A stretch of DNA of 64,000 bases, taken from the IMG/VR virus record IMGVR_UViG_3300044658_000141, positions 1 through 64,000 of that record. One strand, written 5' to 3'. How positions within the stretch are numbered: position 1 is the first letter of the stretch; each line of letters starts with the position of its first letter. Of the stretch, positions 31,712 to 51,965 are shown one piece after another. Under the pieces are notes generated by a model that worked only from the letters and a program-made list of their open reading frames with translations, was not told the DNA's origin and searched no databases. This DNA is from a virus. The translations under genes and the position numbers were made by a program.

Positions 31712-31743
31712 AAAAAAACTTGAGTTGGTGGCTCAAGGCTCGA
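31712..31743 (-). promoter_or_regulatory. GAGCC-GAGCCAC hairpin/U-tract element, copy E
   Basis: TCGAGCCTTGAGCCACCAACTCAAGTTTTTTT. Confidence 0.75.
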
Positions 31744-31769
31744 AAAGGTTTTATGTAACAAAAAAAGAT

Positions 31770-34037
31770 TTATAAAACTTGCGCATACATAAAACTTGAA
31801 CTAGTTGAGAGCGACCCAGCGGTTACTGATGATGGCAAACTGCTTTGCCCCGTCCACACAGCCGTAAGCCGTGGATCGTTGGAGTTACTTGATCCGGTGC
31901 TGCAAATGACGCCCGTTACCGTTGGTGCCGTTGCAGCCGTCACGACAATAGCCCCGATGGCATATTGCTGTCCCTGCGCTAGTGTTACCGATGCTGCCAT
32001 GTTTCTTGTGTAATCTGTATTAGCTGATGCAAAAATAGATGTATCGTTGCTAATTGATGAAAGTAGCGTCAAATTACCGGAACTGTCCACACTGTATAAA
32101 CCAAATTGCACCAATGTAGGAGTGGCCCCTGCGGCAGTGGAACCGCTTTGCATTCTTATCTGTGTCACAGTCTCATTTTTGCGTGCGCGAAAATAGGCCA
32201 CTCGAAAAGTGCCACTGGACAAGGTGATGTTTGTGAGATTACTTGCTGCCCAGCGAGGCATCGTCTCCTCTCCAGCCGTTTGGATGCCAACCATCTCTGA
32301 AGTAATGATCGTTGGCAACTTCGGTCCAATTTGAAGTAGATTTTGCATATTATTGATCATCGTTACACCGGAAATTGGCGCGTAAGGGTACACAGCAGTA
32401 ATTCCGTATGGCGTTGCACGCTGATCAATGATCGTATTATTTTCGATGTAGATATCCGTGACGGTTGCTGCCTGGTCAATAAGGATGCCAACGTTTTGTG
32501 GATTAGTCATTCCGGTAAGATTCGTACCAATAACCGTTGATCCGTCAGCATAGTACTGTGTCCCAATGTCCATGATGAGGTTGTTGGCAATTTTTACGCC
32601 CTGACATCCGTTGAGATAGACACCCGACCGTGGCGCCCGACGAATCATATTATTTGTAATTAACAATTGTTTAGCGTAGAATGTTGGAGAAGATGGAGCA
32701 TTGGAAGGATATCCACGAACTGCAATACCATTACACTGAATATCTGTAATATTATCGGATGGGCCACGATTATAACCCTGATCTATCGTGTTCCCTGAAA
32801 CTATACCATAAAGCGGCGCATCCTCTAAACGAATCCCATTTTGCCCTACATTTTTAATTGTGTTACCTATGCATGAGAAATCTGTTGGGCCGTAATCAGT
32901 TGAGTTGCCAGCCGAAATAAAACCAGACAGCCAGATGCCATCAAAGCAAGATAATTCGGCAGTATTACCGGTGCAAGTTATCTTGCTATTGCCTCGCGAT
33001 ATGGAAAATCCATTATCAGCGCTCATGTAAGAGTGGCAATTTGCTAGGATGACCTCCTGATTAAAGCCAAATCCAACATCTTTTGTATTTGTAAATTCGC
33101 AATTGGTTACACTGGTTATGCCTGTTATACCAAACAAACGAATTGGTAATGATGAAATATTGCGAAAAGCGCAGTTACGAACTGTAATATTTGTAATAAC
33201 CGTTGTGCTATTAGCAGCATCAAGCGATCCGTCAAAGTAAAGCGCTGTTGTTGTACCAGCGCTAGATGTTGTGCGTGCCTGCGTTGGGACAGAAACAGTT
33301 TGGTTTACGGTGCCGATAAAAAGCATATCAGCAAACGAGATATTGCTGATAGCGGTACTGCTATGTGAGAAAACGAAGTCGTTTGCAGAACATTGAAAAA
33401 CAGTCGAGATACCTTGCCCTTGAAACAGAATATTAGAATTGACGATCGAGTAATGCGCTGAAAATGAATAAGTTCCTTCGGTAAAAAGTACACGTCCACC
33501 ACCAGCAGGCAGGGTACTCACCGCACTAGAAATAGTGTTTTGATCGGCTGAACCAGTACAGACAAAATCAGCACGCGCTTGAGAGCGTGGTGAAGCATTG
33601 GACGCTGCAACAACAACAGTAGCCGATTCTGATGGAAGCAGGCTTGAACCATACCAATAGGTCCCATTCCAAGTGTAGCTCTTTTGAGACAGTGGAGGGA
33701 TAGTATCACTTGTTCCGGCTGCGACATTGCTAGTTCCAACCGCCAGAAAAGTAGCAGGATAATTTGAGATATTAATAACTGTTTGTTTTTGACCAATTTG
33801 TGTTCCTGCCTGCAAAACGTAATTGGAGGTTGTGCTTACTGGATTAATACTGACAAGAGATCCTGTATTCGTAGGAATTGTGCTCGTTGTTACTGGAGTA
33901 ATCGGCGTTCCAATTGGCGCAACAGAAACAACGCTCATCGTACTCGTGTCAACCGTAACCTGTGAGCCCGCAGGCCAAGTTCCAACAACGCCATCAATTG
34001 TGCCTGGCTCGTTGAATATGTAAATCTGTTGTGCCAT
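31770..34037 (-). CDS. Right-handed beta-helix virion protein (depolymerase-like)
   Basis: ADFVCTG..GGGRVLFTEGTY; GN/NN beta-helix repeats. Confidence 0.8.
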   Translation of the reverse strand: MAQQIYIFNEPGTIDGVVGTWPAGSQVTVDTSTMSVVSVAPIGTPITPVTTSTIPTNTGSLVSINPVSTTSNYVLQAGTQIGQKQTVINISNYPATFLAVGTSNVAAGTSDTIPPLSQKSYTWNGTYWYGSSLLPSESATVVVAASNASPRSQARADFVCTGSADQNTISSAVSTLPAGGGRVLFTEGTYSFSAHYSIVNSNILFQGQGISTVFQCSANDFVFSHSSTAISNISFADMLFIGTVNQTVSVPTQARTTSSAGTTTALYFDGSLDAANSTTVITNITVRNCAFRNISSLPIRLFGITGITSVTNCEFTNTKDVGFGFNQEVILANCHSYMSADNGFSISRGNSKITCTGNTAELSCFDGIWLSGFISAGNSTDYGPTDFSCIGNTIKNVGQNGIRLEDAPLYGIVSGNTIDQGYNRGPSDNITDIQCNGIAVRGYPSNAPSSPTFYAKQLLITNNMIRRAPRSGVYLNGCQGVKIANNLIMDIGTQYYADGSTVIGTNLTGMTNPQNVGILIDQAATVTDIYIENNTIIDQRATPYGITAVYPYAPISGVTMINNMQNLLQIGPKLPTIITSEMVGIQTAGEETMPRWAASNLTNITLSSGTFRVAYFRARKNETVTQIRMQSGSTAAGATPTLVQFGLYSVDSSGNLTLLSSISNDTSIFASANTDYTRNMAASVTLAQGQQYAIGAIVVTAATAPTVTGVICSTGSSNSNDPRLTAVWTGQSSLPSSVTAGSLSTSSSFMYAQVL

Positions 34038-34056
34038 GTTGTTCCTTCATAAATGC

Positions 34057-34108
34057 AAAAAGCCTCAGAGTTTGTGGCTCCGAGGCTCGTTAAATTAGCT
34101 TGATTATA
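34057..34108 (-). promoter_or_regulatory. Extended -10 (TGcTATAAT) plus hairpin element, copy D
   Basis: ACGAGCCTCGGAGCCACAAACTCTGAGGCTTTTT at 34090-34057. Confidence 0.78.
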
Positions 34109-34162
34109 GCACGTCGCAATGGGATTGAGTAGAGGCGGCCTTCGGCCTGGTGCAGGAAATGA

Positions 34163-34666
34163 TCACGAAACCACACCAGGAGGCGTGATCACGAACCACT
34201 CCTGAAGTATGAGTATCTCGCAAACGTAAGCCCTCAACCATTGCTGATTGCGAAATACTCTAAAAAATCTGGATGAATTTGGCCGAAGTTGCGAATGATA
34301 CACGCTCCCAGCGCCACCAAGAGTTGCATGTGTTTGAAACGGGACCATCAGAGCATCACGCACATTACAGATCGTCTGTTCTGCTGTTTGTGCATTATCC
34401 AGGCTAACCAGAGAGAGCAAATACCAGGATTGCGTGTCTTTAATTTTGCCTCCAAACCCCTTGTGTTGACTATCATCCGTATTAGCATAGACCTCTAGTG
34501 AAACATTGCCTCCTGCCACGTTGTTGGTCACATCCTTTTGTTCGCCCAGAGTGACAGTCGTGTACACAAGAGTACTTGTACCTGGATAAACTAACGCTTG
34601 AGCAAAACTGACTATTGCATTCCCTACCGCAAGAGTATTTGGTGCATTTGAATATAAATTTGACAT
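34163..34666 (-). CDS. Putative tail terminator/completion protein
   Basis: Synteny and size. Confidence 0.55.
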   Translation of the reverse strand: MSNLYSNAPNTLAVGNAIVSFAQALVYPGTSTLVYTTVTLGEQKDVTNNVAGGNVSLEVYANTDDSQHKGFGGKIKDTQSWYLLSLVSLDNAQTAEQTICNVRDALMVPFQTHATLGGAGSVYHSQLRPNSSRFFRVFRNQQWLRAYVCEILILQEWFVITPPGVVS

Positions 34667-34682
34667 TTAAGCACTTTTCTTT

Positions 34683-35150
34683 TTAATATGTTGTAGAACT
34701 AATGATAGGTCCATTGATACTTGTCAAAGCCAGTTCTTTCCATGCGCTGTCAAGAGACCGTGAGAACGTCTTTCGTATCCAATCTGTTTCATTTTCTAGT
34801 GTATATTCCATGTAGTAGATGCCGGGGTCATTGGTAAAATGCCTGCCCAGACTATCTGTCATTCCTGAGAAGCCTTGCTCTCTCCTCCAAGCATAAGGTG
34901 AATCGTTTACAAGCGCTCCTGAGACAGGCATAGATGATGAGTAAATCTGCTGAATAAAATTGTGTTCCAATGTTCCAGTTGGATGCTTAAATTTGCTTGA
35001 CATATAATCTTGCGCTGAGGAGAAAAGGTGATCTAAGCTCAATCTCAGAGCTATAGTCATCCATTCATCAAGTGCTGGCCCCCAATTACTAAATTTTTGT
35101 AGATCCTCCAGCCCTTGTACTTCAACCTGAAGAAAACCAGTTCCTGCCAT
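34683..35150 (-). CDS. HK97 gp10-like neck/tail completion protein
   Basis: VQGLEDL..TGTL..SPYAWRREQG. Confidence 0.65.
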   Translation of the reverse strand: MAGTGFLQVEVQGLEDLQKFSNWGPALDEWMTIALRLSLDHLFSSAQDYMSSKFKHPTGTLEHNFIQQIYSSSMPVSGALVNDSPYAWRREQGFSGMTDSLGRHFTNDPGIYYMEYTLENETDWIRKTFSRSLDSAWKELALTSINGPIISSTTY

Positions 35151-35151
35151 A

Positions 35152-35481
35152 TTAACTCCCTCTCATGCGTGTTACCACCCACTGAAAATGTCCCGTAATA
35201 GTATCAATACTAGGCTCACTCACAATGCGATACTGACGTAGGCGACCTGTGACCGCATCAATAACAACCTGATCAACCATTAAATCACGGAAGAGCACAA
35301 ATTGAGGATTATTCAGGGGAAGCATTGTTGTATATACATTGTAGGTAAAATGCGGGTCTGCACCCTGGTATGTTGCCGCTTCCATTGCAGGTAACTTATC
35401 GAGTTGTACCATGATGTTTGTTGCATATGCCGCATTCCCTATACCTTCATGATACAGGTTGACACGTAAATCTTCAGAAAT
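35152..35481 (-). CDS. Putative head closure protein (start possibly ATT at 35481; first ATG at 35412)
   Basis: Synteny; GGAGG lies 6 nt before an in-frame ATT. Confidence 0.6.
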   Translation of the reverse strand: MSEDLRVNLYHEGIGNAAYATNIMVQLDKLPAMEAATYQGADPHFTYNVYTTMLPLNNPQFVLFRDLMVDQVVIDAVTGRLRQYRIVSEPSIDTITGHFQWVVTRMRGS

Positions 35482-35498
35482 AATACACCTCCAACCTG

Positions 35499-36389
35499 TC
35501 AGAAAGATTGCATCGTGTACGAATCCAAAATCTTTTGCGCGCGCTTACGAAGCAAACTTTCGCCTGAATTATCTCCTCTAAGCACAGCTGAAATATGCCT
35601 CTGTCCACTGGCTAAATCAGGTGCGCCGACTGGATTCAATCGCTTTGCCAGAATATCGCTCGTCAGCAGTACGGCAGCCTCAATTACGTCAGGCGGCATC
35701 ACACTAAAACCTGCGGTATAGGTGATCACAACCTGAGCTTGCCTATACCTACTCGGGACATTCCAGATCGGATAAGGTGATTGTCCAGAGCCTGCTAGTG
35801 GAAGTGGTTGCATATTCGGCATAGAGCAAATTTGCTTGTCTGAATCGATAATCACCTGTGTTGGGTCATACTGGATGGTGTTATTTGGTACTGTCGTGAT
35901 AGACAAGCTGGTAAGTGTCTGGACAGGCCAATGACGTGGCCGAAAATGCAACGCAAATTGATTATCGATAGCCGCGCGCATGGTCGGTAGAGCAAGCATC
36001 TCATTCGTATACGTACTTAGAAAGAGCGATTGTTTACAAATCGTCTCCAATTGCTGAGAAGCTTTAATGATCTGGTCAGCCAGCGAACCGAACACACCAT
36101 CTGTACAGTAACACGTACCTGCGGCATGGGCGTAAGTCGTGGCGGTTACAGAGATGCTTGTTGCACCAATAGAAGCTGTTGCCGTGGCCTGTACTATTTC
36201 TGAATTGGAACCATCAAAGATAGTTATCACATCCCAGGCATTGATTGCCACATTTAAAGCAGGGACAGAAAGTAGCGTAGCTCCAATGGAGACTGCGCTA
36301 CTTAGTCTGCTTGTGTTCCCCACTAAAGAGCCCCACTCAAGACCTGTAGTGGTCCTTTGCCAATCAAACCAGCTGATGTATGTATTCAC
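35499..36389 (-). CDS. Head-tail connector/adaptor
   Basis: IIKASQQLETIC..VITYTAGF..PPDVIEAA..ILDSY. Confidence 0.75.
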   Translation of the reverse strand: MNTYISWFDWQRTTTGLEWGSLVGNTSRLSSAVSIGATLLSVPALNVAINAWDVITIFDGSNSEIVQATATASIGATSISVTATTYAHAAGTCYCTDGVFGSLADQIIKASQQLETICKQSLFLSTYTNEMLALPTMRAAIDNQFALHFRPRHWPVQTLTSLSITTVPNNTIQYDPTQVIIDSDKQICSMPNMQPLPLAGSGQSPYPIWNVPSRYRQAQVVITYTAGFSVMPPDVIEAAVLLTSDILAKRLNPVGAPDLASGQRHISAVLRGDNSGESLLRKRAQKILDSYTMQSF

Positions 36390-36448
36390 AGAACCTCCGC
36401 CTGTGGGTGCCCCGCTCTTTTAAGGCAGGGAGGAAACAAGCAGCCTAA

Positions 36449-37327
36449 TCAGATGTAGGCAATGGTAGCAGCCATTGAACCAGATGCCTGCGAAACGGTT
36501 AAGCCGTTGGCAAATGGCATATCCAGAGTGATGATGGTACCAGCGGCAATGTTACTTGCTGTTGTATAGAGTATCGTTCCAGATGCTGCACTGGCATTGT
36601 CATAAAAAGAAAGAGCAGACGTTGCAGTCGTAGTCACCACAAAATTTTTGAGATACCCTGCACTGTTCTTGATAGTGACTGGTGTTGTACCTGTGCCAGC
36701 GGCAAGTGGATAGTTTGACTTGGCTTGCTGAACAATCAATGCACCGGTCGGAGCCACAATGAGCGCCGTATCACCCGCTGTAGTGTTTTTTCCGTACAAA
36801 TCAGTATTGAGCACGCGAGGGGCATCAGTAACGGGGACTGCGTGAGCAGTTACTGTAACAGTTCCAGCGCTAAATCCTGAGACGCGTGCACGAATATTCT
36901 GCAAGCCAGCAACTGATCCCTCATACAAATGAATGCTGGTAGTTGTTGAGCCAGTGACAGAGGTTACAATGGTATTGGTACCCTCTTGTGTAACCTGCAA
37001 CGGGTCATAGTTGGTACCGTCTTCAGAAACTTCAAAGTTAACAGTTCCTGTAAAGCTAGACATATTCACCGTCAGGATCACTGAGGAGTTACCAAGCAAG
37101 GCCAAAGGTGTGCCATTTCCATTGGCGCCTGCAGCGTTTTGCAGTGTTCCATTGACGGAAGCATACGCAAGTTGTTGGATAACCATAGGTGCATAAGGCG
37201 CACCATTGGAATCGGTTGCAACTGCTCCACCCTGCACACCTACCGTCCCAACACCCGGCACATAAACAGACCCGACAGGATAGCCTGTGGTATCTCTTGG
37301 AATTGAACCATCTGTAAAATAGGTCAT
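36449..37327 (-). CDS. Putative capsid decoration protein
   Basis: Beta-rich; downstream of MCP; shares a domain with 16061-17530. Confidence 0.6.
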   Translation of the reverse strand: MTYFTDGSIPRDTTGYPVGSVYVPGVGTVGVQGGAVATDSNGAPYAPMVIQQLAYASVNGTLQNAAGANGNGTPLALLGNSSVILTVNMSSFTGTVNFEVSEDGTNYDPLQVTQEGTNTIVTSVTGSTTTSIHLYEGSVAGLQNIRARVSGFSAGTVTVTAHAVPVTDAPRVLNTDLYGKNTTAGDTALIVAPTGALIVQQAKSNYPLAAGTGTTPVTIKNSAGYLKNFVVTTTATSALSFYDNASAASGTILYTTASNIAAGTIITLDMPFANGLTVSQASGSMAATIAYI

Positions 37328-37338
37328 ATATTCCTCCG

Positions 37339-37584
37339 CTACGATTTATAATTAGCGCCCATCGGGCCAGGATTGGTTGACATTGATTTCGGCGCTAGTT
37401 TCTCAAATGGAGGCTGGTTGCCTTGAGGTGCCATTGAGGGCTGACCCGCTACCACAGACTGCTGACCAAATGAGTAGCCCGTTCCTCGTACAGCATCAGC
37501 ATTCGAGAGTTTGTATGGGCCTCCAACCGTATCAAGCAGATTCGGCGTGGATGATGACCCAGGTGCAACATTTGGATCGTTCAT
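37339..37584 (-). CDS. Small Pro/Gly-rich protein
   Basis: GGAGG RBS; first gene after element C. Confidence 0.55.
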   Translation of the reverse strand: MNDPNVAPGSSSTPNLLDTVGGPYKLSNADAVRGTGYSFGQQSVVAGQPSMAPQGNQPPFEKLAPKSMSTNPGPMGANYKS

Positions 37585-37608
37585 AGGAGATTGACCTCCA
37601 TTGCAAAC

Positions 37609-37658
37609 AAAAAAGCCAACGGCTTGTGGCTCGTTGGCTCGTGATTGGTTTAAGTATA
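37609..37658 (-). promoter_or_regulatory. -10 (TATACT) plus hairpin element, copy C
   Basis: ACGAGCCAACGAGCCACAAGCCGTTGGCTTTTTT at 37642-37609. Confidence 0.78.
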
Positions 37659-37673
37659 TCTGATCAGTTCACT

Positions 37674-38111
37674 CTAATCAAATTGGTCAGACTTTTTTAG
37701 CCCTTGCATCTGGGAAAAGTATTCTAATCTTTCTTCTGTCATACCCTTCTTGCCACCATACTTGTCTAAGTATTCTTTCATTAGTATCGCCTGCTCTTTC
37801 TTTCCGATTAAGTAGGGTGTTATCGCATCAAGCAATATAACTAATGATTGATGGTTTTTTACCAAGATTCTTTTTATCGGTCTCGTATGTGAGTTTCTTG
37901 AATTATGGAAACCATATGTTGTTATTCCTAATTCTTCCAGAATACTTCGACATTCCATCATGAGTACGTAAGAAGAGTTTACAATTGTGATATATGGCGT
38001 TGGCGTAATTGTTATATTTCCTGAACGATGTTTAACCGTTTTACGGAATATTCCAATACATCCTTCACCGTCTATCACTCCAGCCAACCAAGCTAACTTT
38101 GTTTCTTGCAT
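37674..38111 (-). CDS. Free-standing LAGLIDADG homing endonuclease
   Basis: AWLAGVIDGEGCI..PYLIGKKEQA; own TATAAT upstream. Confidence 0.9.
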   Translation of the reverse strand: MQETKLAWLAGVIDGEGCIGIFRKTVKHRSGNITITPTPYITIVNSSYVLMMECRSILEELGITTYGFHNSRNSHTRPIKRILVKNHQSLVILLDAITPYLIGKKEQAILMKEYLDKYGGKKGMTEERLEYFSQMQGLKKSDQFD

Positions 38112-38210
38112 GTAGCACAATCAACCTTTCACAATAATTTGCGTGTAGGCTAATTATACTACATGCACACTAACCACTTCAATGTCGCGTGCACTTAATA
38201 CTAGTTTTGC

Positions 38211-39968: not shown

Positions 39969-39973
39969 TATTT

Positions 39974-42707: not shown

Positions 42708-42741
42708 AAAAAACCCCTGAGCGAGTGGCTCAGGGGCTCGA
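42708..42741 (-). promoter_or_regulatory. GAGCC-GAGCCAC hairpin/U-tract element, copy B
   Basis: TCGAGCCCCTGAGCCACTCGCTCAGGGGTTTTTT. Confidence 0.78.
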
Positions 42742-42769: not shown

Positions 42770-42845
42770 TGGATTGCCTGGTAGGACTCGAACCTACAGC
42801 GCCTGCAGTATTCCGGCAGTGCTCTACCATTGGAGCTACAGGCAA
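42770..42845 (-). tRNA. tRNA-like gene with atypical anticodon arm (nominal anticodon AAT; identity undetermined)
   Basis: Acceptor TTGCCTG/CAGGCAA; D arm GCTC-CAATGGTA-GAGC; T arm GTAGG-TTCGAGT-CCTAC; encoded CCA; upstream TGcTATACT at 42865-42857. Confidence 0.8.
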
Positions 42846-42882
42846 TCTTTAGTCGAAGTATAGCACAGCATGCAAAGTTGTG

Positions 42883-44058: not shown

Positions 44059-44061
44059 CTT

Positions 44062-47000
44062 TTAATCCTCCATCGTTGCTGCCTGCCTATGTCCGCGTTG
44101 TGCTACACGCTCAAAGACAGCATTAACACTCTTCGCCAAATCATCCTTGTTGGCAATGGCTGGCTCTGCCTCTTTGCCACGTGCGCGATTGAACACATTA
44201 CGGACCTGATCAGGCGTTGTACACTCCACAAGTTCGTCACTTATCCATTTATGAATATCTGGAGATATGAGTGTGGTGGTAAAGCCTCTCTGTGTACGCC
44301 CAGCCTTCACATCATCTATTGCCCTGGTCCGCCAGCGTTTGTACTCCTGTGAGATCGCCCGTTCATCATTGCCACCACTTTGGGATGAGGCATCGGGCGT
44401 AGGATCGATTTGATGTGTTGCTCCCTCTGTTCTTGCAACCATTGTATTTTGCGTGGATCGCTCAAAATGCGCTCCATCTTCCTGGCTTGCCTTTTCCTCT
44501 TGCATCTGTTGCGTGAGTAATTGAAGGAGTTCGCTAATCGTGTAGCGCTTCTCTTCAAGTCCCTTTTGCTCGTTGGTAGCATCTTCTTCTTCCTCCTCAT
44601 CTTCGTAATAGTCATACTCACTCTCATCTGCCAACATGGCACGAAGCATCTCTGACTGTGCTTTCTGTACAAGCTTTTCCAGTACGCTCGCCCTGGCTTG
44701 TGTCATGCCACGCTGGCCTTGCAACTTACCAATTGCCGATGTCAGATTCTCCACGAGGCTAGCGGCATCTTCTTCATTCTGATGAGAGTTGATAGCCTGC
44801 ATTAAATCATGGAGATCTTGCGCGATATTCGCCGCTTCTTGCGACTCCTGAGTCGTCCACGTCTTTGATGGTTTGCGTCCTGACAGTGCATTGTAGAGTT
44901 GCGCTTTAGAACCGATCGTGTTCACCAGCGATTGCAATTGTTTGGCCGCAGCCTGTTGTGCTTTTGCCGATTTCATAGCAACGTGGGACTGGGTATTAGC
45001 TGATTTTGCAGCAGTCTTAGCAGCCTTAACCGCAGCGGTCTGCGCCTTCTGTTGTGCCTTCGCTGCCATCCTCTCAGCTTTTGCCTTGGCTGCTGCTGCT
45101 TGTTTCTGCAATCGTGCTTTCTGAGCCTGGGCCCTGGCTTTTGCCTCCGCTGCTCTCTTCTTCGCTGCCGCTTTTGCTTTCTCAGCCTTCAATTTAGCGG
45201 CTTGCTCTCGTCTTGCCGCTGCTTCCTTTTGCTTCTGCTCGCGTTCCGCCGCTTTCTCAGCGCGAATCTTTGCCATCTCCTGTTGCCGTTGTTCGCGTTC
45301 CTGTTGGCGCAATGCACGCATCTGTTGTACGGCCTGATGCAAGTTTGCCTGAGCTTGATGGAGCGCTGCTCTTGCCGCCGCCTTCTCCCCCGGCGCAGCA
45401 TTGTGCAGGTTCTGCTGTGCCTGGTGAAGTGCGTCACGGGCTGATTGCAATTTGGTTTCAGCGGCTTGTAACTTTGGTTGAAGTTGTGCCGTTGCCTGCG
45501 AGGCTTGTTTGGCTGCTGGTGACGTATCGTGTTTAGCTCCATAGGCCGGGTGTGCAAAATCGCCATGTGTTTTCTGATCATGGTCATGACCACCGGGTTC
45601 ATGGCGCGCAAAAAGAATGAGATCAGCAAAAGGATTGTAGCCATACTCATCAATACCATACACACGCTCTAGTTCACTAAATGGCTCATCCTGGTCCGAT
45701 TTGAGGAGTTGTAAGATCTCATCCTCGTATGCCAGATCTTCTGGCGTTGGAAGTTCACTCTCTTCTTCGTCTAGCTCGTCGGCTTCATCACCACTATCTG
45801 CATCAGCATCTGCTGAAGTATCCATCTGACCAGCAGTAGCGCGGCTCAACTCTTCCTCGTCGCTCTGATCAGATTTGCTCTGGCTACTCTTCTTCTGTGG
45901 TGGTATCTCTTCTTCTTCGCTATCATCCTGTTGTGGCTTCTGTTGCTGCGTAGATTGTTGCGGTTGCTGTAAGCCTTGCAATTTCGCTTGCAGGGCAGCA
46001 TTGCGCATTTTATCGGAGGCCATGTCATCAAGAAAGATGGGACCATCTTTTGTTACCAGGATACGACCAATGTACGGAGCATTAGGATCGTCTGGAAGTT
46101 TCAACAATTTGCCAGCGTTAGTCACGCCTAAAATGCCTGATGTTACTAGTTCACTGTATGCACCTGCTAACTCTGATACATCCTCCTCCTCTTCATATCC
46201 TCCAAAACTCGCCTCAAACATTTCACCATGTAAATCAGGGTCAAAGTCATTGTTCATACATTGCGTGAGGAAGCCCGCATACACCACTGCAAGCGGGTCA
46301 ATAGTACGCCTGTATGTCACATTCTGCTGAGAGTCACCGCTACTCTTGTGGATATCCTCAGTAAATGCAACATCCTGCATACTTAGCCCATATGCCGCTA
46401 CGCAGATGTTGATGAGGAACTTATCAAAGGTAGGATCAAGTTGGTACTGCTCAAATGCCTGATATTCCATGCCGGGTTGTGTAAAACGCATACGGACCTG
46501 CTGACTTTGATTGCCTGCAAGTAAAGCGTTCCACGCCTGTTCAAATGCATCGATCTGGTCAGGAGTCCACGTAGCATCGGCTGGCACCTTCATCATGCCT
46601 TGTGGAATATTGCCCTCTGTGAAATGGCTCAAGTCTTTCTTCTGCTTGCGCAATGCTTGATTAACAAGCATGATGATACGCTCGACTCTGGATTGTCCAT
46701 AAGGATTGTCGGCGGCTGGTGACTCTTGGTAGTGGATCATCTCATCAGATCTGAACCACGCACCTGGCAGACCCCATGGGTACTGCTGATAGGCATAGGA
46801 TGGTGGCTGTGGTATCTTTCCCCAATCGTCCAATAGTGGTTTCATCTGATCGCCCGAAATTATCTCTAATGCATATAGCCCACCACCACGCTTTTTACGC
46901 TTGTAAACATATAACTCATCAATTTGGGTTTGTTCCCGGAGGGCAATGCGTATCCAACTATGCAGGTCATGCATTTTATCTGGAGAGTCAAACCAACTGC

Positions 47001-47460
47001 GGAAGTACGCTATTTCGGTTTGATAGTCCTTGTCGTTTGCACCTGCGGCCACGTATTCGGGTTTGAGTGATATTTTGAGTTGCATACGTGGGACGAGATC
47101 GAACCAAGCCCTCTCGCAGAGAGTCACGCCAGAATATAATTTCGCCAAATTACGTAATTGCTGAAAACTAGGTATGTCGGGATTTTGATTAGTGCGATCA
47201 ACGGGGAAGGTATTGTAGGCTGGAACGAATTTCCACTGGACGGGATAACCTAATGGATTTGCGGATGGTTGGGGTGCGAGCGGAATCCCAGGGCTGAACA
47301 GGGCCGCCTGTCCGGTGGGTATATTTGCTTGCGTGCCGTAAAAAACTTGACCTAGAGTGCCCTGCTTTTGGCCACCAGGCACGTACATTAAACCGTTCCC
47401 AATCGGATAGACAGCAGATCGATTTAGTGCTTCTCTTTTTTTACGGCTTCGCTTATTCAT
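44062..47460 (-). CDS. Portal protein with a long C-terminal insertion
   Basis: After TerL; YGQSRVE..FTEGNIPQG..ICVAAYGL; 1132 aa. Confidence 0.85.
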   Translation of the reverse strand: MNKRSRKKREALNRSAVYPIGNGLMYVPGGQKQGTLGQVFYGTQANIPTGQAALFSPGIPLAPQPSANPLGYPVQWKFVPAYNTFPVDRTNQNPDIPSFQQLRNLAKLYSGVTLCERAWFDLVPRMQLKISLKPEYVAAGANDKDYQTEIAYFRSWFDSPDKMHDLHSWIRIALREQTQIDELYVYKRKKRGGGLYALEIISGDQMKPLLDDWGKIPQPPSYAYQQYPWGLPGAWFRSDEMIHYQESPAADNPYGQSRVERIIMLVNQALRKQKKDLSHFTEGNIPQGMMKVPADATWTPDQIDAFEQAWNALLAGNQSQQVRMRFTQPGMEYQAFEQYQLDPTFDKFLINICVAAYGLSMQDVAFTEDIHKSSGDSQQNVTYRRTIDPLAVVYAGFLTQCMNNDFDPDLHGEMFEASFGGYEEEEDVSELAGAYSELVTSGILGVTNAGKLLKLPDDPNAPYIGRILVTKDGPIFLDDMASDKMRNAALQAKLQGLQQPQQSTQQQKPQQDDSEEEEIPPQKKSSQSKSDQSDEEELSRATAGQMDTSADADADSGDEADELDEEESELPTPEDLAYEDEILQLLKSDQDEPFSELERVYGIDEYGYNPFADLILFARHEPGGHDHDQKTHGDFAHPAYGAKHDTSPAAKQASQATAQLQPKLQAAETKLQSARDALHQAQQNLHNAAPGEKAAARAALHQAQANLHQAVQQMRALRQQEREQRQQEMAKIRAEKAAEREQKQKEAAARREQAAKLKAEKAKAAAKKRAAEAKARAQAQKARLQKQAAAAKAKAERMAAKAQQKAQTAAVKAAKTAAKSANTQSHVAMKSAKAQQAAAKQLQSLVNTIGSKAQLYNALSGRKPSKTWTTQESQEAANIAQDLHDLMQAINSHQNEEDAASLVENLTSAIGKLQGQRGMTQARASVLEKLVQKAQSEMLRAMLADESEYDYYEDEEEEEDATNEQKGLEEKRYTISELLQLLTQQMQEEKASQEDGAHFERSTQNTMVARTEGATHQIDPTPDASSQSGGNDERAISQEYKRWRTRAIDDVKAGRTQRGFTTTLISPDIHKWISDELVECTTPDQVRNVFNRARGKEAEPAIANKDDLAKSVNAVFERVAQRGHRQAATMED

Positions 47461-47503
47461 GCATCTTCACCTAAAAATAGCGGAATCGGCAACTTATTAT
47501 CAC

Positions 47504-48868
47504 TCATCTCGCACCTCCAGGCCACGCAGGTGCTGCGGTTCGCGTGCGGGACAACTCGACACGGCGCTTCATGGCTGCCACTTGTTCAGCTGCTGACAAT
47601 TCGCCTCCACCCATTAACTCAGTAAGTGCCCATACAAGCGCATCCAGCCTATCTGGTGACTTCTGCCCTGTTAATGGCTCCCATTGACACATCTGATCTT
47701 CGAGTAAGGGAAACATACCTACATGATGTACTTTGCCCTGCTCATAGAATGAGGCTATAGGCTCAGCTCGTGTATACTTTCCTCGACTTGCATAGACCTG
47801 CTTGTAAGAAACCTGCTTATCTACAGTACGAACATTCGACTCAACCAACTGCCCACCGTTATTCTGTTCGCCTATGATGCGATCACATCGATATTTATGA
47901 TAGGCTGTCACTGCTTCAGATGCCCAGGTGAGAGGTGAGGCATGTAAGCTCTTATCATCCAAGACATAACCATGCCCATTTCCATCAATACCAGCAACCA
48001 CAATACCGGTCTCTGCACTCTCTTCCTGATCAGTAACAGCAGGATCAATAGCTACGACTACACGCAATAACTCAGGATGTGAGGTTACACGGTATACCTC
48101 AATCATCTCCTCGCGTTTCCATAACGCACCCTCAACATCATCAAGAAGTTCAGCGTATAATTCTTGCCTTCCTAGCCTTGTCCCGGCATAACGCTGCTTA
48201 AGTGTCTCCAACGCAACGGAGGAGAGATTTGCGGCATTATCAAAAGTATTCCCTCTGGTAACATGTATATCTTTACGTGCCAGCAGTTCTTTGAGCCACT
48301 TGATTGGCTTAGGAGTAGTAGTAACAACTGCTTGAGGTGATTGCCCTCGTGGACCTTTTAGACGCAACCCAAACAGTAACTGATCCCAGGTTTCAGATGG
48401 ATATTTAGCGGCACATGGCTCATCGAACCAGGCCCGATGATGTTGTGGACCCCTTAATCGGTCGGGATCTTCAGCACTAAATAGCTTGTACTTTGTTCCA
48501 TTGGTAAGATATAGCTCACCTATTGAGCGGTTCCAAGTAGCAATCTTGTCTTTGGGAAGAATATTGAGCAGACCTGATTCACCCTCGATACAGGTATCCC
48601 TGGCATCGGCAAACGTTGGAGCAACGATAGCGATACGGCTTTTCTTGTATTTGAGCCCGTATGCTTTCACATCTTCTGCTGCTGTCCGAGTTTTCCCGTA
48701 CCCGCGACCCGCGAGTATCAACCACACATTCCAGTTACCTGCAGGAGTCATCTGTTCAGGTCGCGCCCATACAGACCAATCATAGAGCAGTTCAGCCGCT
48801 TGCTCATCAGTAAGCTTTTCAAGCTCAGCACGGGGCAATCTGGCAAGTTGAGCAGCAAGAGTGGTCAT
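47504..48868 (-). CDS. terL: Terminase large subunit
   Basis: AGRGYGKT, LRGPQ..WFDE, TTTPK, AIDPA, SPDRLDALVW. Confidence 0.95.
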   Translation of the reverse strand: MTTLAAQLARLPRAELEKLTDEQAAELLYDWSVWARPEQMTPAGNWNVWLILAGRGYGKTRTAAEDVKAYGLKYKKSRIAIVAPTFADARDTCIEGESGLLNILPKDKIATWNRSIGELYLTNGTKYKLFSAEDPDRLRGPQHHRAWFDEPCAAKYPSETWDQLLFGLRLKGPRGQSPQAVVTTTPKPIKWLKELLARKDIHVTRGNTFDNAANLSSVALETLKQRYAGTRLGRQELYAELLDDVEGALWKREEMIEVYRVTSHPELLRVVVAIDPAVTDQEESAETGIVVAGIDGNGHGYVLDDKSLHASPLTWASEAVTAYHKYRCDRIIGEQNNGGQLVESNVRTVDKQVSYKQVYASRGKYTRAEPIASFYEQGKVHHVGMFPLLEDQMCQWEPLTGQKSPDRLDALVWALTELMGGGELSAAEQVAAMKRRVELSRTRTAAPAWPGGAR

Positions 48869-49392
48869 ATTTCATCGGACTCTTTCAACTGTTCTAGTTT
48901 CTGGAGTAATAACTCTTTTGCGCCGCCAACATCGATAGAACCAGAGTGTTCCACTTGTTGCTTGTCTCGAAATTCAGGAAGTCTCGCCTTTAATAACAAA
49001 CTGAGCAAGGAATCGCTGTATACCCGCTCCATCAATGGCTTCTCAACCTCTTTGCCGTTTTCCCTGACTGTCACAAAAACTTGACGACCCATTGAGACTA
49101 CCGGGCGTTCTGTCCCTTTTACACCACGCTCCCACGCAGCGGCGAAAAGCAGATCATTCGCTTCCTGGTTGGCAATGTTAAAGCGCATCGAGAACGAGTC
49201 GTCATGCTCCTGCCAATACCAAACGGTGCTTCTGTCAACCCCTGCTGCCATACACGCCGCTCGTATATTGGCAGTCATAGACAACGTTTTAAGGAACTTC
49301 TCTTGTATGGCTTCCCGCTCGGCTTTTGTAAGATGTTGCCCTGGTCTACGCATTGCACGTGGTGGTATAGGATTGTTGGATTGTTTAGGCAT
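48865..49392 (-). CDS. terS: Terminase small subunit
   Basis: HTH AACMAAGVDRSTVWYW..YSDSLLSLLLKA; overlaps terL start. Confidence 0.8.
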   Translation of the reverse strand: MPKQSNNPIPPRAMRRPGQHLTKAEREAIQEKFLKTLSMTANIRAACMAAGVDRSTVWYWQEHDDSFSMRFNIANQEANDLLFAAAWERGVKGTERPVVSMGRQVFVTVRENGKEVEKPLMERVYSDSLLSLLLKARLPEFRDKQQVEHSGSIDVGGAKELLLQKLEQLKESDEI

Positions 49393-50446
49393 GTGCCGCC
49401 TCCTCAACCCGTTCGAGTAGTGTGGCTTTACTGAGGATGTGAGTATAGATGTGTTCTGCTATAGCTTGCATAAAACGTGGAGGAACACAGTTACCCATAC
49501 GCTCTACAGCATTTTTTCTTTCACCAGGAAATTGAAATGCATCGGGGAAAGAGGCAATTCGTTTTATTTCACCAACACTCAAGTACCGTTCTCGATCAGG
49601 ATGAATGAGTCCAGTTGTTGCAATTTCACTTTTCACCAGAGTGCAAGCACATTTATCCCAAGAGAGTAATTTTGTGTTTCTGGCGCCGCCAGTTCCACCT
49701 TTGTATTTTTGGAAAGCTTTCTCTGCATAGGCAGTATTATAGTTACCTGCTCTCATTTCTCTGCATGCTTTCCTCAACCAATCCGGTAATGTAGGTGCAA
49801 CCGTATCTTCAATACCCTCAAACGCAAGACGCACCGAAATAGGTCGCGTTTGTGGATCAGGGTAGGTAGGTTCTATATGCAAGTCATTATGCACACCAAT
49901 AAAGATAACTCTCTCTCTCGCCTGCGGTACTCCAAAATAACTCATGTCAATTAAGCGACATTTGACCCAATAACCGCTTTCTTTCAACTCCCTCATGATC
50001 ACAGCAAAGATATGCTTCTTATCTCCTTTAACCATACCGCTAACATTTTCCATTACAAATGTTTTAGGTTTAAGCCCACGTAACAATCGAACATATTCAC
50101 GAAAAAGGTTATTACGAGGATCATCTATTTGTCTCTTACCTGCATCTGAGAAGCCCTGACAGGGTGGCGAGCCATCAAAGATATCTAATTGTCCCGGTTT
50201 CAATCCTGTAAGTTCTAACAACTCTTCAGCAGTAACCGTCTTGATATCTCTATGAAGTACAAGAGTTCCATCATGATTAAGTCTATAAGTTGATACAGCA
50301 TTATCATCCCACTCCACAGCCGCTAGTACTTTACCTCCAGCCCACTTATAGCCGAGTGATGAGCCACCACAACCTGCAAAAGTCGTTATCACGTTGAACT
50401 TATATGGCCCCGGTGGATTGATTGGCTTGTTCACAAAGTCAAGCAT
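49385..50446 (-). CDS. DNA (cytosine-5)-methyltransferase
   Basis: FAGCGG, GSPPCQGFS, MENV, QARERV, GNCV motifs. Confidence 0.93.
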   Translation of the reverse strand: MLDFVNKPINPPGPYKFNVITTFAGCGGSSLGYKWAGGKVLAAVEWDDNAVSTYRLNHDGTLVLHRDIKTVTAEELLELTGLKPGQLDIFDGSPPCQGFSDAGKRQIDDPRNNLFREYVRLLRGLKPKTFVMENVSGMVKGDKKHIFAVIMRELKESGYWVKCRLIDMSYFGVPQARERVIFIGVHNDLHIEPTYPDPQTRPISVRLAFEGIEDTVAPTLPDWLRKACREMRAGNYNTAYAEKAFQKYKGGTGGARNTKLLSWDKCACTLVKSEIATTGLIHPDRERYLSVGEIKRIASFPDAFQFPGERKNAVERMGNCVPPRFMQAIAEHIYTHILSKATLLERVEEAAHA

Positions 50447-51057
50447 TACTTCTTGCCCTTCCCTGACTTCAAGCACAACTTTCCGCACTGATCACACATC
50501 TCTGTATCCAGATCATCAGCAATAGACTCATCATACTCTTTGAAAGTGACTGATTTATCCTCTTTGTTCTCATCACTTCCCAGATACTCATCACCCAACG
50601 CCTCCAACATCTGCCGCAGCGTCTCATCATCAGTACCGAGACTTGCCAGATCGTACCCGGCGTCTTGTTGCTCTTGCAAAAGCTGTGCGAGCAAAGTCTC
50701 ATCATCGCTCGCGTGTTGAGCATGGTTGTTATCTGCAATGAGGTATGCCTCACATTCGATCATGGGCCAGGAGGAAGGAATCAGGTCACATCTCAGACTG
50801 CCTAGCTTTTCATAGTAGGAGGCATGAGCATTTACGAGTTCCTGAGCGGCAAGAACAATACCATGACCGGCGATAATAGTATAAGAGCCATCACCATTCT
50901 CTTTTGCTACAATCGAACGTACTTGACCAAAACGTTCTAGTGAGGCTTTAAGCATCTTTAATTGCTCAGGAGGATGGCTTCGGTAGTTTCTTGCATGAGG
51001 ATAGAGAGAAACTAGCGGTAACATAATATTCTTTTGTACGGGCTCAAGTTCACTCAT
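50446..51057 (-). CDS. ParB/Srx-like N-terminal domain protein
   Basis: NYRSH..SLERFGQ..IIAGHG..YLIADN. Confidence 0.8.
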   Translation of the reverse strand: MSELEPVQKNIMLPLVSLYPHARNYRSHPPEQLKMLKASLERFGQVRSIVAKENGDGSYTIIAGHGIVLAAQELVNAHASYYEKLGSLRCDLIPSSWPMIECEAYLIADNNHAQHASDDETLLAQLLQEQQDAGYDLASLGTDDETLRQMLEALGDEYLGSDENKEDKSVTFKEYDESIADDLDTEMCDQCGKLCLKSGKGKK

Positions 51058-51273
51058 CTCACTTCTCATCCTCACGTCTCGGCATCATAGCCATCGCACC
51101 CGGCATCTGCACGCCATGCACCAACGCATACTGTATCGTTACCAACATCACATCGAAGCACACACACGTCCTCACAATCCTTGGAGGCAACAATCGACGC
51201 CAGATACCACACCTCGGCTCGCCCACATGTATCGGCGCATGGCAGATTGAACATCGTCCAATTAGCTTGCTAT

Positions 51274-51495
51274 TCAATCATCACCTCTGAGGATGTCAAT
51301 TTGCCTGCACGTATGCGCAGGATGGTAAGAGAGAACACGAACAACTAGACCTGCAAGGCAAATCACGCCAGCAACTGTTAAGAGTATAAGCGACAAAATA
51401 GAAAAATGGTTGAATAACATGACCACAATGGTAGTTAAGGTAAATACAAGCAGAGAAAATTTAGGATCGGATACAAAACTACTTATCGTCGGCAT
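51274..51495 (-). CDS. Small two-TM membrane protein
   Basis: AGGAG RBS before MPTISS; two hydrophobic helices. Confidence 0.5.
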   Translation of the reverse strand: MPTISSFVSDPKFSLLVFTLTTIVVMLFNHFSILSLILLTVAGVICLAGLVVRVLSYHPAHTCRQIDILRGDD

Positions 51496-51610
51496 AATAA
51501 ATTCTCCTACTGTTTGTGTTGGCGCGTGGTTGCAGTGTTTGTCTGAGATGTGTGTTGGAAGGCACCTCAACATAACTGATACTTCGCGGCTACCCGTGCC
51601 ACGCGCAAAC

Positions 51611-51657
51611 AAAAAAAGCCATGAGTGTGGCTCAAGGCTCGTAATCAAAATATAGCA
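51611..51657 (-). promoter_or_regulatory. Extended -10 (TGcTATATT) plus hairpin element, copy A, heading the late operon
   Basis: ACGAGCCTTGAGCCACACTCATGGCTTTTTTT at 51642-51611. Confidence 0.78.
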
Positions 51658-51674
51658 TACTTTGGCCGCTAGCG

Positions 51675-51965
51675 CTATCCTACTCGTTTTGACCGCTGAA
51701 GGTCTGCCAGGTCCGTCTCCAGATCCAACGCCGCCTTTCTCAATCTCGTCAACTGTGTCTGCAGTGCCTGCTCATCACCGCACGCCAGCTCGCGCCACGC
51801 TTGGAGCAATGTCATCATGCTGCACGAGCTGATCGTATCATGGCGGCGACAGAGCACGGTGAGCACTGGCTTGCCAGATTTATCATAGCCGATTTCGCCG
51901 ATTTTGTGTGGATGATCTCTATCAAGGACGCAGTTGACTGGCAACATCTTTGACTTGTTATTCAC
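51675..51965 (-). CDS. Zinc-ribbon protein, Mu Com-like (putative late regulator)
   Basis: C-x5-H-xx-KIG...LTVLCRRH resembles Com CxxC-KLL...IEIRCPRC; sits just upstream of element A. Confidence 0.45.
   Translation of the reverse strand: MNNKSKMLPVNCVLDRDHPHKIGEIGYDKSGKPVLTVLCRRHDTISSCSMMTLLQAWRELACGDEQALQTQLTRLRKAALDLETDLADLQRSKRVG

Follow-up and report, generated by a model that had tools for sequence, protein, structure and literature searches.

The late genes of a 103-kb phage record from soil are preceded by a repeated 15-base RNA motif, which in every copy forms part of a hairpin followed by a T-run. These elements are, on balance, probably conditional terminators, which a factor specific for the motif would open by acting on the nascent RNA. 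The most likely arrangement is that the late genes are kept off until this phage factor permits read-through. The window analyzed here is a stretch of 64,000 nucleotides (positions 1 to 64,000 of the record), and the positions of the features are summarized in Table 1.

Table 1. Positions of the motif-bearing elements, their promoters and leaders, and the candidate gene (window positions unless marked as genome positions)
Feature	Position	Strand	GAGCC-N2-3-GAGCCAC site	Remarks
Different leader, 42-nt box then terminator hairpin	55366..55447	-		heads the operon ending in the 96-aa gene
Second copy of this leader	genome 89520-89600	+
96-aa protein P0001, candidate trans factor (model and synteny)	51675..51965	-		closes the operon that precedes A
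Extended -10 promoter TGcTATATT, no -35	51649..51657	-		7 nt upstream of CGAGCC of A; about 20 nt past the stop codon of the 96-aa gene
Element A, CGAGCC-TT-GAGCCAC, hairpin, T7	51611..51641	-	51627-51640	dG -11.4
Leader of B, promoter TGcTATACT (42857-42865) and tRNA-Ile(AAT) (42770-42845)	42770..42865	-
Element B, CGAGCC-CCT-GAGCCAC, 12-bp hairpin, T6	42708..42740	-	42725-42739	dG -21.9
Promoter TTGATT-17-TATACT	37653..37681	-		11 nt upstream of CGAGCC of C
Element C, CGAGCC-AAC-GAGCCAC, hairpin, T6	37609..37641	-	37626-37640	dG -16.0; 25 nt 5' of the ATG of the 81-aa gene
Extended -10 promoter TGcTATAAT, no -35	34103..34111	-		13 nt upstream of CGAGCC of D
Element D, CGAGCC-TCG-GAGCCAC, 11-bp hairpin, T5	34057..34089	-	34074-34088	dG -17.8; 19 nt 5' of the spike ATG
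Element E, CGAGCC-TT-GAGCCAC, weak 6-bp hairpin, T7	31712..31742	-	31728-31741	dG -5.7; 27 nt past the spike stop codon
Element F (outside the window)		+	genome 81972-81986	ahead of a holin-like gene and an endolysin gene

Five copies of CGAGCC-N2-3-GAGCCAC (elements A to E) are present in the window, where 0.01 is expected from dinucleotide shuffles, and all of them lie on the coding strand. A preliminary description of this DNA had located all five with coordinates that are right within 1 nt. For GAGCC-N3-GAGCCAC (B, C and D) and for GAGCC-N2-GAGCCAC (A and E) alike, 0.01 is expected per dinucleotide shuffle, and each of the five sites is immediately preceded by C. No copy other than these and element F is found in the 103-kb record, and all six are co-oriented with their downstream genes. 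At least 11 further copies are present in related uncultured phages, and the motif module is kept in G001 (four copies), G006, G009 (two), L056, L093 (two), L080, L076 and L097. The relatives that share this module have proteins 40-65% identical. All 13 positions of the motif are intact in most copies; the exceptions lie in the second repeat (GCGCCAC in two relatives and GAGCCAT in one), and, spacer aside, the motif is constant from lineage to lineage. Rfam covariance models detect no family at the gathering score anywhere in the window.

The sequence analysis agrees with the proposal that the elements are located at the 5' ends of the late units and not at their 3' ends. The promoters of A and D and the tRNA promoter before B share the sequence TGcTATAnT, which is an extended -10 box without a -35 box, and C is preceded by a promoter with both boxes. 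The -10 boxes that had been claimed for A, C and D are real and stronger than described; the tRNA in front of B is likewise confirmed. The genome contains 24 TGnTATAnT sites; three of them are found 7-13 nt ahead of a copy, against about 0.014 expected, and another is the promoter of the tRNA leader of B. Other promoters in the genome have TTGACA -35 boxes, which the element promoters lack. An extended -10 promoter of this kind precedes most copies. When all copies are considered, the distance between the -10 box and the motif is 7, 8, 11, 13, 22, 24 or 26 nt, and B is located past an entire tRNA. This variation fits a signal in the nascent RNA, and not a DNA site anchored to the promoter. No convincing promoter precedes element E, and none is present at G001_2 and G001_4; all three look like inter-operon terminators. 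The T-run is separated from the start codon by at most about 10-40 nt (19-40 nt at C, D and F), so that transcription must cross each terminator; at C, D and F no promoter fits into this gap. A small hairpin, TTCTCT-CGCA-AGAGAA, is present between the tRNA and motif B, and also in the relative G009.

The genes downstream of the elements are those of a classic late set (packaging, head, connector, spike, tail, and holin-like protein with endolysin), and their assignment in the preliminary description stands. Element A heads an operon that encodes a small membrane protein, a 72-aa Cys-rich protein, a ParB-like protein, a methyltransferase, TerS, TerL and the portal. Element B heads the unit of the head protease and probable capsid protein, C heads the connector unit (head-tail adaptor), the first gene of which encodes 81 aa, D precedes the gene of a 755-aa tail spike, and E precedes the tail and tape-measure unit, an operon of 18 kb.

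Every copy, in the genome (six) and in the relatives, consists of a hairpin and a U-tract (T5-7), with dG ranging from -5.7 to -21.9. A consensus terminator scan detects B, D, C and E, with B and D at the top by stem length. The elements thus have the sequence features of an intrinsic (Rho-independent) terminator, at which the polymerase would stop. The spacers CCT, AAC, GTT, GAT, ACT, TGC and CGT are located opposite AGG, GTT, AAC, ATC, AGT, GCA and ACG respectively. This covariation of the spacer with the 3' arm indicates that the hairpin is under selection, and the G-U pairs in the hairpins are viable only on the sense strand. The complementarity is as had been claimed, with small corrections. 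In A, TT opposite AT forms a single pair and leaves a T-T mismatch; in D, TCG opposite TGA includes one G-U pair; and in E, pairing is limited to CTTGAG/CTCAAG, with the first GAGCC essentially unpaired. The claim that CCAC is kept in the loop is valid for the copies in the window, but in G001_2, G001_4 and several metagenome copies CCAC is the 5' arm. The second repeat alone contributes to the hairpin in G001_2, G001_4, G007 and the types L081 and L088, where the first GAGCC is unpaired. The motif is nevertheless unchanged in these copies and in E, which suggests that it is read for its sequence. Its overlap with the 5' arm of the terminator is constant: it is found in all copies (more than 15), in three different structural registers. 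The turnover of the spacer and 3' arm with compensation, while the motif is kept at 40-65% protein identity, argues for purifying selection on the sequence rather than recent duplication. Covariation and register-independent conservation of the motif together support the earlier suggestion that both RNA structure and RNA sequence are selected.

These features, and the failure to find in the record a sigma-70 region 2, a Q family, a T7-type RNA polymerase or an RNA antisense to the motif, are consistent with the following mechanism. Host RNA polymerase would start at the extended -10 promoters lacking -35 boxes, for which no activator would be needed, or arrive from the upstream operon. It would transcribe 5'-CGAGCC-N2-3-G(A/C)GCCAC-3' and by default stop about 30-45 nt further on, where the hairpin and U-tract lie. 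The motif on the nascent RNA would be recognized by a sequence-specific factor produced ahead of the late phase. The bound motif would be unable to pair with the 3' arm, and the hairpin would fail to form, because this motif is, or overlaps, the 5' half of the terminator; the polymerase would then read through into the late genes. A single factor could in this way switch on at least six transcription units jointly, those for packaging, head, connector, spike, tail and lysis. The candidate for this factor is the 96-aa protein, whose gene immediately precedes the first late promoter.

The 96-aa protein is the best candidate by synteny and co-occurrence, and its assignment as the motif-reading factor is tentative. 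Its gene is located directly upstream of the promoter, the element and the packaging operon in G000, G001 and G009, and each of the four sizeable contigs with the motif carries a member of its family. Co-occurrence of the gene with the motif, which had been proposed as a check, is thus seen in other phages: the gene keeps its position in the motif-bearing relatives, and 17 other loci of TerL relatives have neither the protein nor the motif (six of these loci have 6-10 kb upstream of TerL, and some have a TerL closer than that of G009). This co-occurrence is confounded, because the phages share ancestry, and other conserved neighbours, namely the 72-aa Cys-rich protein and proteins of 103 aa and 379 aa, co-occur with the motif as well. 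In the G006/L069 lineage the next gene directly follows the 96-aa homologue with no clean element between them, which counts against the assignment.

In the AlphaFold model, the 96-aa protein has a four-stranded beta meander and two helices. The predicted four-stranded beta domain (residues 7-49) is basic, and is followed by a helical hairpin; across the family the N-terminal domain is basic (pI 8.4-10.3), and the C-terminal helices of the 96-aa protein are acidic. The protein is predicted to form a homodimer. The model of this dimer scores 0.66, against 0.01 for the best of three controls; this mark is reached by 20 of 30 proteins solved as same-chain pairs, compared with 1 of 23 whose solved structures are single chains. 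At least 93% of the contacts agree between runs, with a partner pLDDT of at least 75. The predicted dimer is two-fold symmetric with antiparallel helices. Such a dimer suits palindromic DNA better than direct RNA repeats 7-8 nt apart, and this counts against binding of the motif RNA by the 96-aa protein. The protein belongs to no Pfam or PHROG family and matches no known RNA-binding fold or family; its best fold matches are generic (Z up to 4.2 for the beta domain and up to 5.8 for the helices). It is possible, but somewhat doubtful, that the 96-aa protein founds an undescribed dimeric family that binds a single-stranded RNA motif, that it occludes at least six terminators with no processive modification of the polymerase, and that it forms a two-step cascade with the box at 55366-55447. 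The leader containing this box, which is also conserved in the relative G006, could be the upstream step of the cascade. If so, the phage would possess a regulon-wide late switch that works by direct occlusion, within an antitermination cascade made of new parts.

An explanation that we consider not very likely is that the motif is a loading site for a processive antiterminator, either as RNA, like nut/boxB for N, or as non-template DNA in a paused complex, like ops for RfaH. The factor would travel with the polymerase past this terminator and later ones, and the overlap with the 5' arm would be compaction only. The free promoter distance, the strand specificity and the presence of one motif per unit fit this explanation equally well; long units, such as the tail operon after E, would gain from it; and the acidic C-terminal helices of the 96-aa protein could contact the polymerase. 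However, it leaves the overlap of the motif with the 5' half of the terminator, which holds in every copy and every register, unexplained. Processivity is also not required, because the next terminators downstream have their own motif, and no N- or Q-like gene is recognized; for Q, the profiles PF06530 and PF03589 give no match at E ≤ 1 in the record, which is about 80% complete. Alternatively, the elements may act constitutively between the late units, as leaky terminators, insulators or stabilizers of RNA ends, with a 5' sequence that serves, for example, as a processing or RNase site, binds a host termination factor, or was spread by duplication together with the promoter. This is unlikely, even though the elements are canonical intrinsic terminators by scan, E, G001_2 and G001_4 resemble promoterless inter-operon terminators, and a 5' hairpin can stabilize mRNA. 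If a terminator 7-26 nt past a strong promoter were not bypassed, essential genes that have no second promoter after the terminator would be silenced. Constitutive action also does not account for the conservation of the motif in diverged phages while the spacer and 3' arm change with compensation, or for the terminators outside the late genes, which lack the motif.

It is quite improbable that the motif acts as a double-stranded DNA site, either as the operator of a phage repressor, activator or roadblock or as a promoter element recognized by a phage-modified polymerase, with the terminators being separate. The predicted symmetry of the candidate dimer, like that of most DNA-binding regulators, and the fact that in A, C, D and F the motif lies near the start of transcription would fit such a site. 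Against it, the distance from the -10 box ranges from 7 to 26 nt, B is beyond a tRNA and some copies are promoterless. Direct repeats with a period of 7-8 bp and variable spacing fit a symmetric binder poorly, and the alternative, an inverted repeat GAGCC...GGCTC, is not seen in B, in E or in the type II copies, and its spacing ranges from 15 to 19 nt. The constant overlap with the 5' arm would be left without a reason, and neither a sigma factor (sigma-70 region 2) nor a T7-type RNA polymerase is found in the record.

Conditional termination relieved by a motif-binding factor can be compared with several known systems. The preliminary description had proposed that the gene upstream of A encodes a protein like Com of phage Mu. 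This proposal is not supported: Zn_ribbon_Com (PF10122) gives no match at E ≤ 10 in a six-frame search of the 103-kb record, and neither the 96-aa nor the 72-aa protein has a Com match in Pfam at E ≤ 1. Conserved cysteines occur singly in the 96-aa family (C12, C39 and C48) and not as two CxxC knuckles. In the Cys/His pattern described earlier, C39 is invariant and C12 nearly so, but H, C or D occurs at position 42, and C48, although usual, gives way to another residue in 2 of the 14 sequences. The fold comparison gives a beta meander with helices, with no zinc-ribbon chain among the fold matches listed. By these comparisons the 96-aa protein is not a Com homologue, and no zinc ribbon is detected in it. 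The RNA site of Com had been given correctly: the protein binds 5'-CC(N)2-3GAG-3', and SELEX yields the bipartite motif GAG(N)2CC (PMC6483171). Every copy here includes CC-N2-3-GAG, so the Com site lies within GAGCC-N2-3-GAGCC, with its 2- or 3-nt spacer, as a resemblance in sequence only. A further likeness is that a small phage protein acts, or would act, on a short RNA motif at or in a hairpin, and that refolding of the RNA switches the gene on. However, Com is a 62-aa CCCC zinc ribbon, whereas the candidate here is a 96-aa protein predicted to be a dimer with a beta meander and a helical hairpin. Com activates translation of a single gene and is no antiterminator, whereas the target here is a multi-copy transcription terminator, and the repeats here are GAGCC, not GAGNNCC.

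In the Q/PR'/tR' system of lambda (6S RNA), as in the present one, an intrinsic terminator lies a short way past a constitutive late promoter, and the late genes need, or here would need, read-through. The regulator gene of lambda is also located directly upstream of the late promoter, like the 96-aa gene. Lambda, however, has one promoter-terminator unit, whereas at least six are present here. The DNA site of Q is fixed within the promoter, and Q uses a sigma-dependent pause, whereas the motif is located at a free distance from the -10 box (7-26 nt) and overlaps the terminator, and the record has no Q-family domain. In the HutP, BglG/SacY/LicT (RAT) and ANTAR systems, as would be the case here if a protein binds, the RNA site overlaps the 5' part of a leader terminator and binding blocks termination; HutP reads short repeats a few nucleotides apart. 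These are host metabolic regulators with known domains that usually stabilize an alternative hairpin. The present system is viral and regulon-wide, the candidate proteins have no CAT, ANTAR or HutP domain in a Pfam scan, and, with only 0-20 nt of RNA ahead of the motif, an alternative structure has no space to form. The N-nut (boxA/boxB) system of lambda and put of HK022 would, under the proposed mechanism, share with the present elements a nascent-RNA signal just past the promoter, the bypass of terminators and several copies per genome. They differ in that boxB and put are not terminators themselves, act processively on distant terminators and serve early genes, not late ones.

The motif occurs five times in the window, three times as GAGCC-N3-GAGCCAC and twice as GAGCC-N2-GAGCCAC, always on the minus strand, against 0.01 copies expected by chance for each of these two spacer patterns according to dinucleotide shuffles. 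When the sequence is read, all five copies (elements A-E) are preceded by C and followed by a complementary 3' arm and then by T5-7. These counts and readings confirm the five minus-strand motif copies with 3' arm and T-run reported in the preliminary description, and the observation is now broadened by a sixth copy in the record and by further copies in relatives. A consensus terminator scan detects B, C, D and E, of which B and D rank at the top by stem length; no Rfam family is matched in the window. When the whole record is searched, one additional exact copy (genome 81972-81986, plus strand) and no further copies are detected. This copy lies in element F, downstream of which are a gene for a 60-aa membrane-like protein and a gene for a 509-aa endolysin. 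Because element F heads the lysis genes, the motif set covers the complete late programme of packaging, head, connector, spike, tail and lysis. The coordinates and the hairpin energies calculated with RNAfold are summarized in the table.

Positions of the elements and of other features (window positions unless otherwise stated)
Feature	Position	Strand	Remark
Element A	51611-51641	minus	-11.4 kcal/mol
Element B	42708-42740	minus	-21.9 kcal/mol
Element C	37609-37641	minus	-16.0 kcal/mol
Element D	34057-34089	minus	-17.8 kcal/mol
Element E	31712-31742	minus	-5.7 kcal/mol; starts 27 nt after the stop codon of the spike gene
Element F	genome 81954-82006 (L006:1483-1535), outside the window	plus	motif 8 nt after TGtTATACT
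Tandem elements in a related locus	L093:3725-3900	plus	
Small terminase, large terminase, portal fusion	within ~13-52 kb	minus	virion and packaging genes
Head protease, probable capsid protein, HNH protein, head-tail adaptor	within ~13-52 kb	minus	virion and packaging genes
Tail spike, tape measure	within ~13-52 kb	minus	virion and packaging genes
96-aa protein gene	51675-51965	minus	3' end 20 nt upstream of the promoter of A
72-aa Cys-rich protein gene	51059-51277	minus	second gene of the packaging operon behind A
tRNA-Ile (anticodon AAT)	42770-42845	minus	in the head-operon leader
Small hairpin TTCTCT-CGCA-AGAGAA	42742-42760	minus	between tRNA-Ile and element B
Second leader	~55366-55447	minus	heads the operon ending in the 96-aa gene
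Second leader, other copy	genome 89520-89600	plus	
Second leader, G006 counterpart	L064:12252	plus	upstream of the operon of the homologue
Degenerate element relative	genome 65054-65097, outside the window	plus	~35 nt after TGgTAAAAT
IS200/IS605-type pair	61499-63179	plus	138-aa and 434-aa transposase-family proteins
Direct repeat	584-704 and genome 102956-103076		identical

The window covers the first 64 kb of the 103,076-bp record, the completeness of which is estimated to be 80%. The public runs that carry the phage DNA are exclusively soil and rhizosphere metagenomes, with no RNA run among them, and no similarity to deposited phages is detected at the DNA level. The host search with the large terminase (TerL) against species genomes gives one short MAG contig labelled Pseudomonadota as the sole match, and the search of a protein atlas gives one weak lead under the trust threshold. 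An IS200/IS605-type pair is located inside the phage genome. The direct repeat formed by the final 121 bases of the record may be either an assembly wrap-around point or a terminal repeat.

The search with the large terminase gives 17 related viral loci. The 80-kb contig G001, the TerL of which is 68% identical, contains four motif copies on its late-gene strand, and pattern scans of viral and metagenome collections give additional copies in the contigs and loci G006, G009 (two), L056, L093 (two), L080, L076 and L097, together with several copies of a second structural type (type II). The two copies of L093 are motif-bearing terminators arranged in tandem ~95 nt apart behind a single TGcTATAAT promoter, with a tail-region gene downstream. 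The proteins common to these motif-bearing phages are typically 35-65% identical. In contrast, the 13 specified motif positions are essentially invariant, the exceptions being the second repeat GCGCCAC in two G001 copies and GAGCCAT in one G009 copy. Because the copies differ in pairing register, the pairing was tabulated copy by copy. In 11 copies, the 5' arm runs from the first GAGCC through the spacer into the second repeat, and each spacer covaries with the bases that it faces (CCT:AGG, AAC:GTT, GTT:AAC, GAT:ATC, ACT:AGT, TGC:GCA and CGT:ACG), with occasional G-U pairs that are functional on the sense strand only. In the type II copies (G001_2 and G001_4, which are individual copies in G001, as well as G007 and the metagenome types L081, L098 and L088), only the second repeat forms the hairpin, in which G(A/C)GCCAC pairs with GTGG(C/T), leaving the first GAGCC and the spacer without partners; the first GAGCC is unpaired in element E as well. 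As far as these pairings indicate, selection acts on the hairpin structure and, separately, on the motif sequence, as had been proposed, since the spacers covary and the motif is kept even where it is unpaired. The motif is conserved whatever its structural role, and therefore something reads the motif sequence.

A degenerate relative of the element forms a strong bidirectional hairpin, GCGCCATCG-TGCCACAAGC-CGATGGCGC, with the loop GCCACAAGC as in C and F, upstream of a gene for a ParB-methyltransferase fusion. The tRNA-Ile in front of element B has an unusual anticodon and its own extended -10 promoter, and the small hairpin that follows it is also present in G009 (L058) before the corresponding element. 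Pattern matches in human-gut bacterial contigs were set aside, because they are degenerate tandem heptads and probably coincidental. These heptads (CGAGCCA, CGAACCA and CGAACAA) are repeated in 3-6 units ending with GGCTTTTT and are located upstream of 16S rRNA in L083, L089, L091 and L092 and ~230 nt upstream of RNase P RNA in L078; in L101 they start 13 nt past a -10 box (TGgTATAAT). Their layout of promoter, repeats, weak hairpin, U-run and rRNA is nonetheless odd.

An extended -10 sequence, TGnTATAnT, with no recognisable -35 box precedes elements A, D and F and the tRNA leader of B, and the promoter of C is TTGATT-17-TATACT. Of the 24 TGnTATAnT sites on both strands of the genome, three are located 7-13 nt upstream of a motif copy, against ~0.014 expected. 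The late promoters look like a distinct class from their sequences, because the promoter-like sites outside the late regions (1824, 72582, 77590, 88894 and 94212) have an extended -10 plus a TTGACA -35 box. Element E is without a convincing promoter of its own. The possibility that a promoter starts inside the hairpin, so that its own transcripts escape termination, was rejected, because the -10 box is located 7-26 nt upstream of the entire hairpin.

The sequence comparisons identify the cis element as a genuine RNA-level feature under strong selection, which probably gates the whole late programme. Constitutive promoters would each be blocked by a terminator carrying a 15-nt address label, and a factor that holds the motif would occlude the 5' arm of the terminator and thereby allow read-through into the late genes. 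The motif overlaps the 5' half of the terminator in every register, so that holding it in a single-stranded form blocks terminator formation. Factor-dependent read-through by this occlusion is the most likely mechanism and is favoured, if cautiously. The distance from the T-run to the start codon is 19-25 nt at C and D and ~20 nt at F; no promoter fits into this gap, and therefore the transcripts of the genes behind C, D and F must cross the hairpin and the U-tract. That the elements are simply constitutive terminators is unlikely, and that the motif serves as a processive loading site is only slightly less so.

The motif may also be a DNA operator, but this is the least probable of the explanations considered, because the distance from the -10 box to the motif is free (7-26 nt), a complete tRNA intervenes at B and three copies are promoterless. 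This free position fits a signal in the nascent RNA and counts against a DNA site anchored to the promoter, for instance one bound by Q or by an activator. An operator in the specific form of an inverted repeat, GAGCC...GGCTC, was rejected, because B, E and the type II copies lack its second half and its spacing is variable.

A second leader family, in which a 42-nt box is followed by a terminator, is represented by two copies in the genome and a counterpart in G006. The box is nearly identical across the copies (AGATGCTG..CTAGAGGGCTGCGGCCAATCATC), and the terminator stem differs with its pairing kept. GATGC in the box could pair with its complement GCATC in the 5' arm of the terminator, which makes an alternative antiterminator pairing possible. 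A two-step cascade is conceivable by analogy with lambda N followed by Q.

The 96-aa protein encoded upstream of element A belongs to no Pfam or PHROG family, and its own family is small: a search of 1.8 billion proteins gives 17 representatives at E <= 0.001. Within the family alignment, C39 never varies and C12 hardly does; position 42 holds H, C or D, and C48 is the usual residue but is replaced in two of 14 sequences. The AlphaFold2 model built with this alignment is confident (pLDDT 90.7): residues 7-49 form a four-stranded beta domain, which is followed by a short helix and then by a long one. All family members have a basic beta domain (pI 8.4-10.3); the helices are acidic. When the complete model is used in fold searches, only the helical hairpin finds matches (Z <= 5.8). 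When the beta domain is folded alone (pLDDT 73), its matches are generic beta meanders only (Z <= 4.2); a weak, tied match to 3nm7 (Z 3.6), the single-strand-binding repeat of Pur-alpha, is a lead only. A PDB sequence search gives coiled-coil noise only, and a related-locus metagenome scan and single-protein scans with P0007 and P0010 give nothing. A complex predictor scores the homodimer at 0.66, against 0.01 for the best of three controls; among proteins of solved structure, 20 of 30 that are pairs of one chain and one of 23 that are single chains reach this score. The runs share at least 93% of their contacts, with a partner pLDDT of at least 75, and the contacts indicate an antiparallel, two-fold symmetric packing, so that a homodimer is supported by prediction. 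In the 3562-aa library protein P0011, 13 separate stretches match residues 31-74 of the 96-aa protein (E 5e-10); P0011 could be a repeat protein built from this unit or a coiled-coil artefact.

Homologues of the 96-aa protein with 38-42% identity are encoded in G001 and G009 at the same place, directly upstream of the promoter, the element and the packaging operon. All four motif-bearing contigs of appreciable size (the record itself, G001, G006 and G009) encode a member of the family. Neither family nor motif occurs in 17 other TerL-relative loci (L008-L023 and L068) or in the complete relative G002; in six of the 17 loci the sequence upstream of TerL extends over 6-10 kb, and in some the TerL is nearer to that of the record than the G009 TerL is. 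This distribution is, however, only suggestive, because it is confounded by common descent. Proteins of 72 (Cys-rich), 103 and 379 aa are conserved in the same block, and in the G006/L069 lineage either the next gene or a degenerate remnant lacking a terminator comes directly after the homologue. For these reasons, the 96-aa protein is the best candidate for the factor that reads the motif but is not established as such, and the assignment is a tentative one. The 72-aa protein (CxxC...C...CxC), which is 63-65% identical in G001 and G009 and thus more conserved than the 96-aa protein, matches no family and nothing in the PDB; it is another candidate for a nucleic-acid binder. Across the genome, a search for trans-acting antisense RNA against the motif found none.

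Textbook late-gene control depends on Q, on N, on a late sigma factor or on an activator of the kind of Ogr, C or p4. Six-frame profile searches of the ~80%-complete record detect no sigma-70 region 2, neither Q family and no Com-type zinc ribbon. A T7-type RNA polymerase is not matched in the six-frame search either, which is a weak blank, as the control genomes are also silent. The locus offers a compact, testable alternative to textbook late control, with a small, highly conserved cis element and natural compensatory variants; if the factor acts by RNA binding, it would represent a new small RNA-binding fold and provide a portable terminator-plus-protein switch.

The literature found describes single-unit Q-type systems (lambda Q, AlpA and BrrG) and the work on Com, the activator of the phage Mu mom mRNA; a multi-copy regulon of motif-marked terminators was not found described. 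Com is a 62-aa CCCC zinc-finger protein that binds a hairpin adjoining the translation-inhibition structure of mom mRNA; its SELEX motif is bipartite, GAG(N)2CC, and 5'-CC(N)2-3GAG-3' is required for binding (PMC6483171), in agreement with the zinc finger and the GAG-N2-CC-type site in the mom leader that the preliminary description names. Every motif copy contains CC-N2-3-GAG, the spacer of two or three nucleotides included, and the resemblance of the RNA sites is therefore real. In contrast, the 96-aa protein, which the preliminary description likened to Com, lies outside the Com family by profile search, with no zinc ribbon among its fold matches, and Com works on translation. By analogy, the present system may work like Com, the hairpin being opened by binding of its 5' side. 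The Com label fails for the 96-aa protein, but holds reasonably well as a functional analogy for the RNA site.
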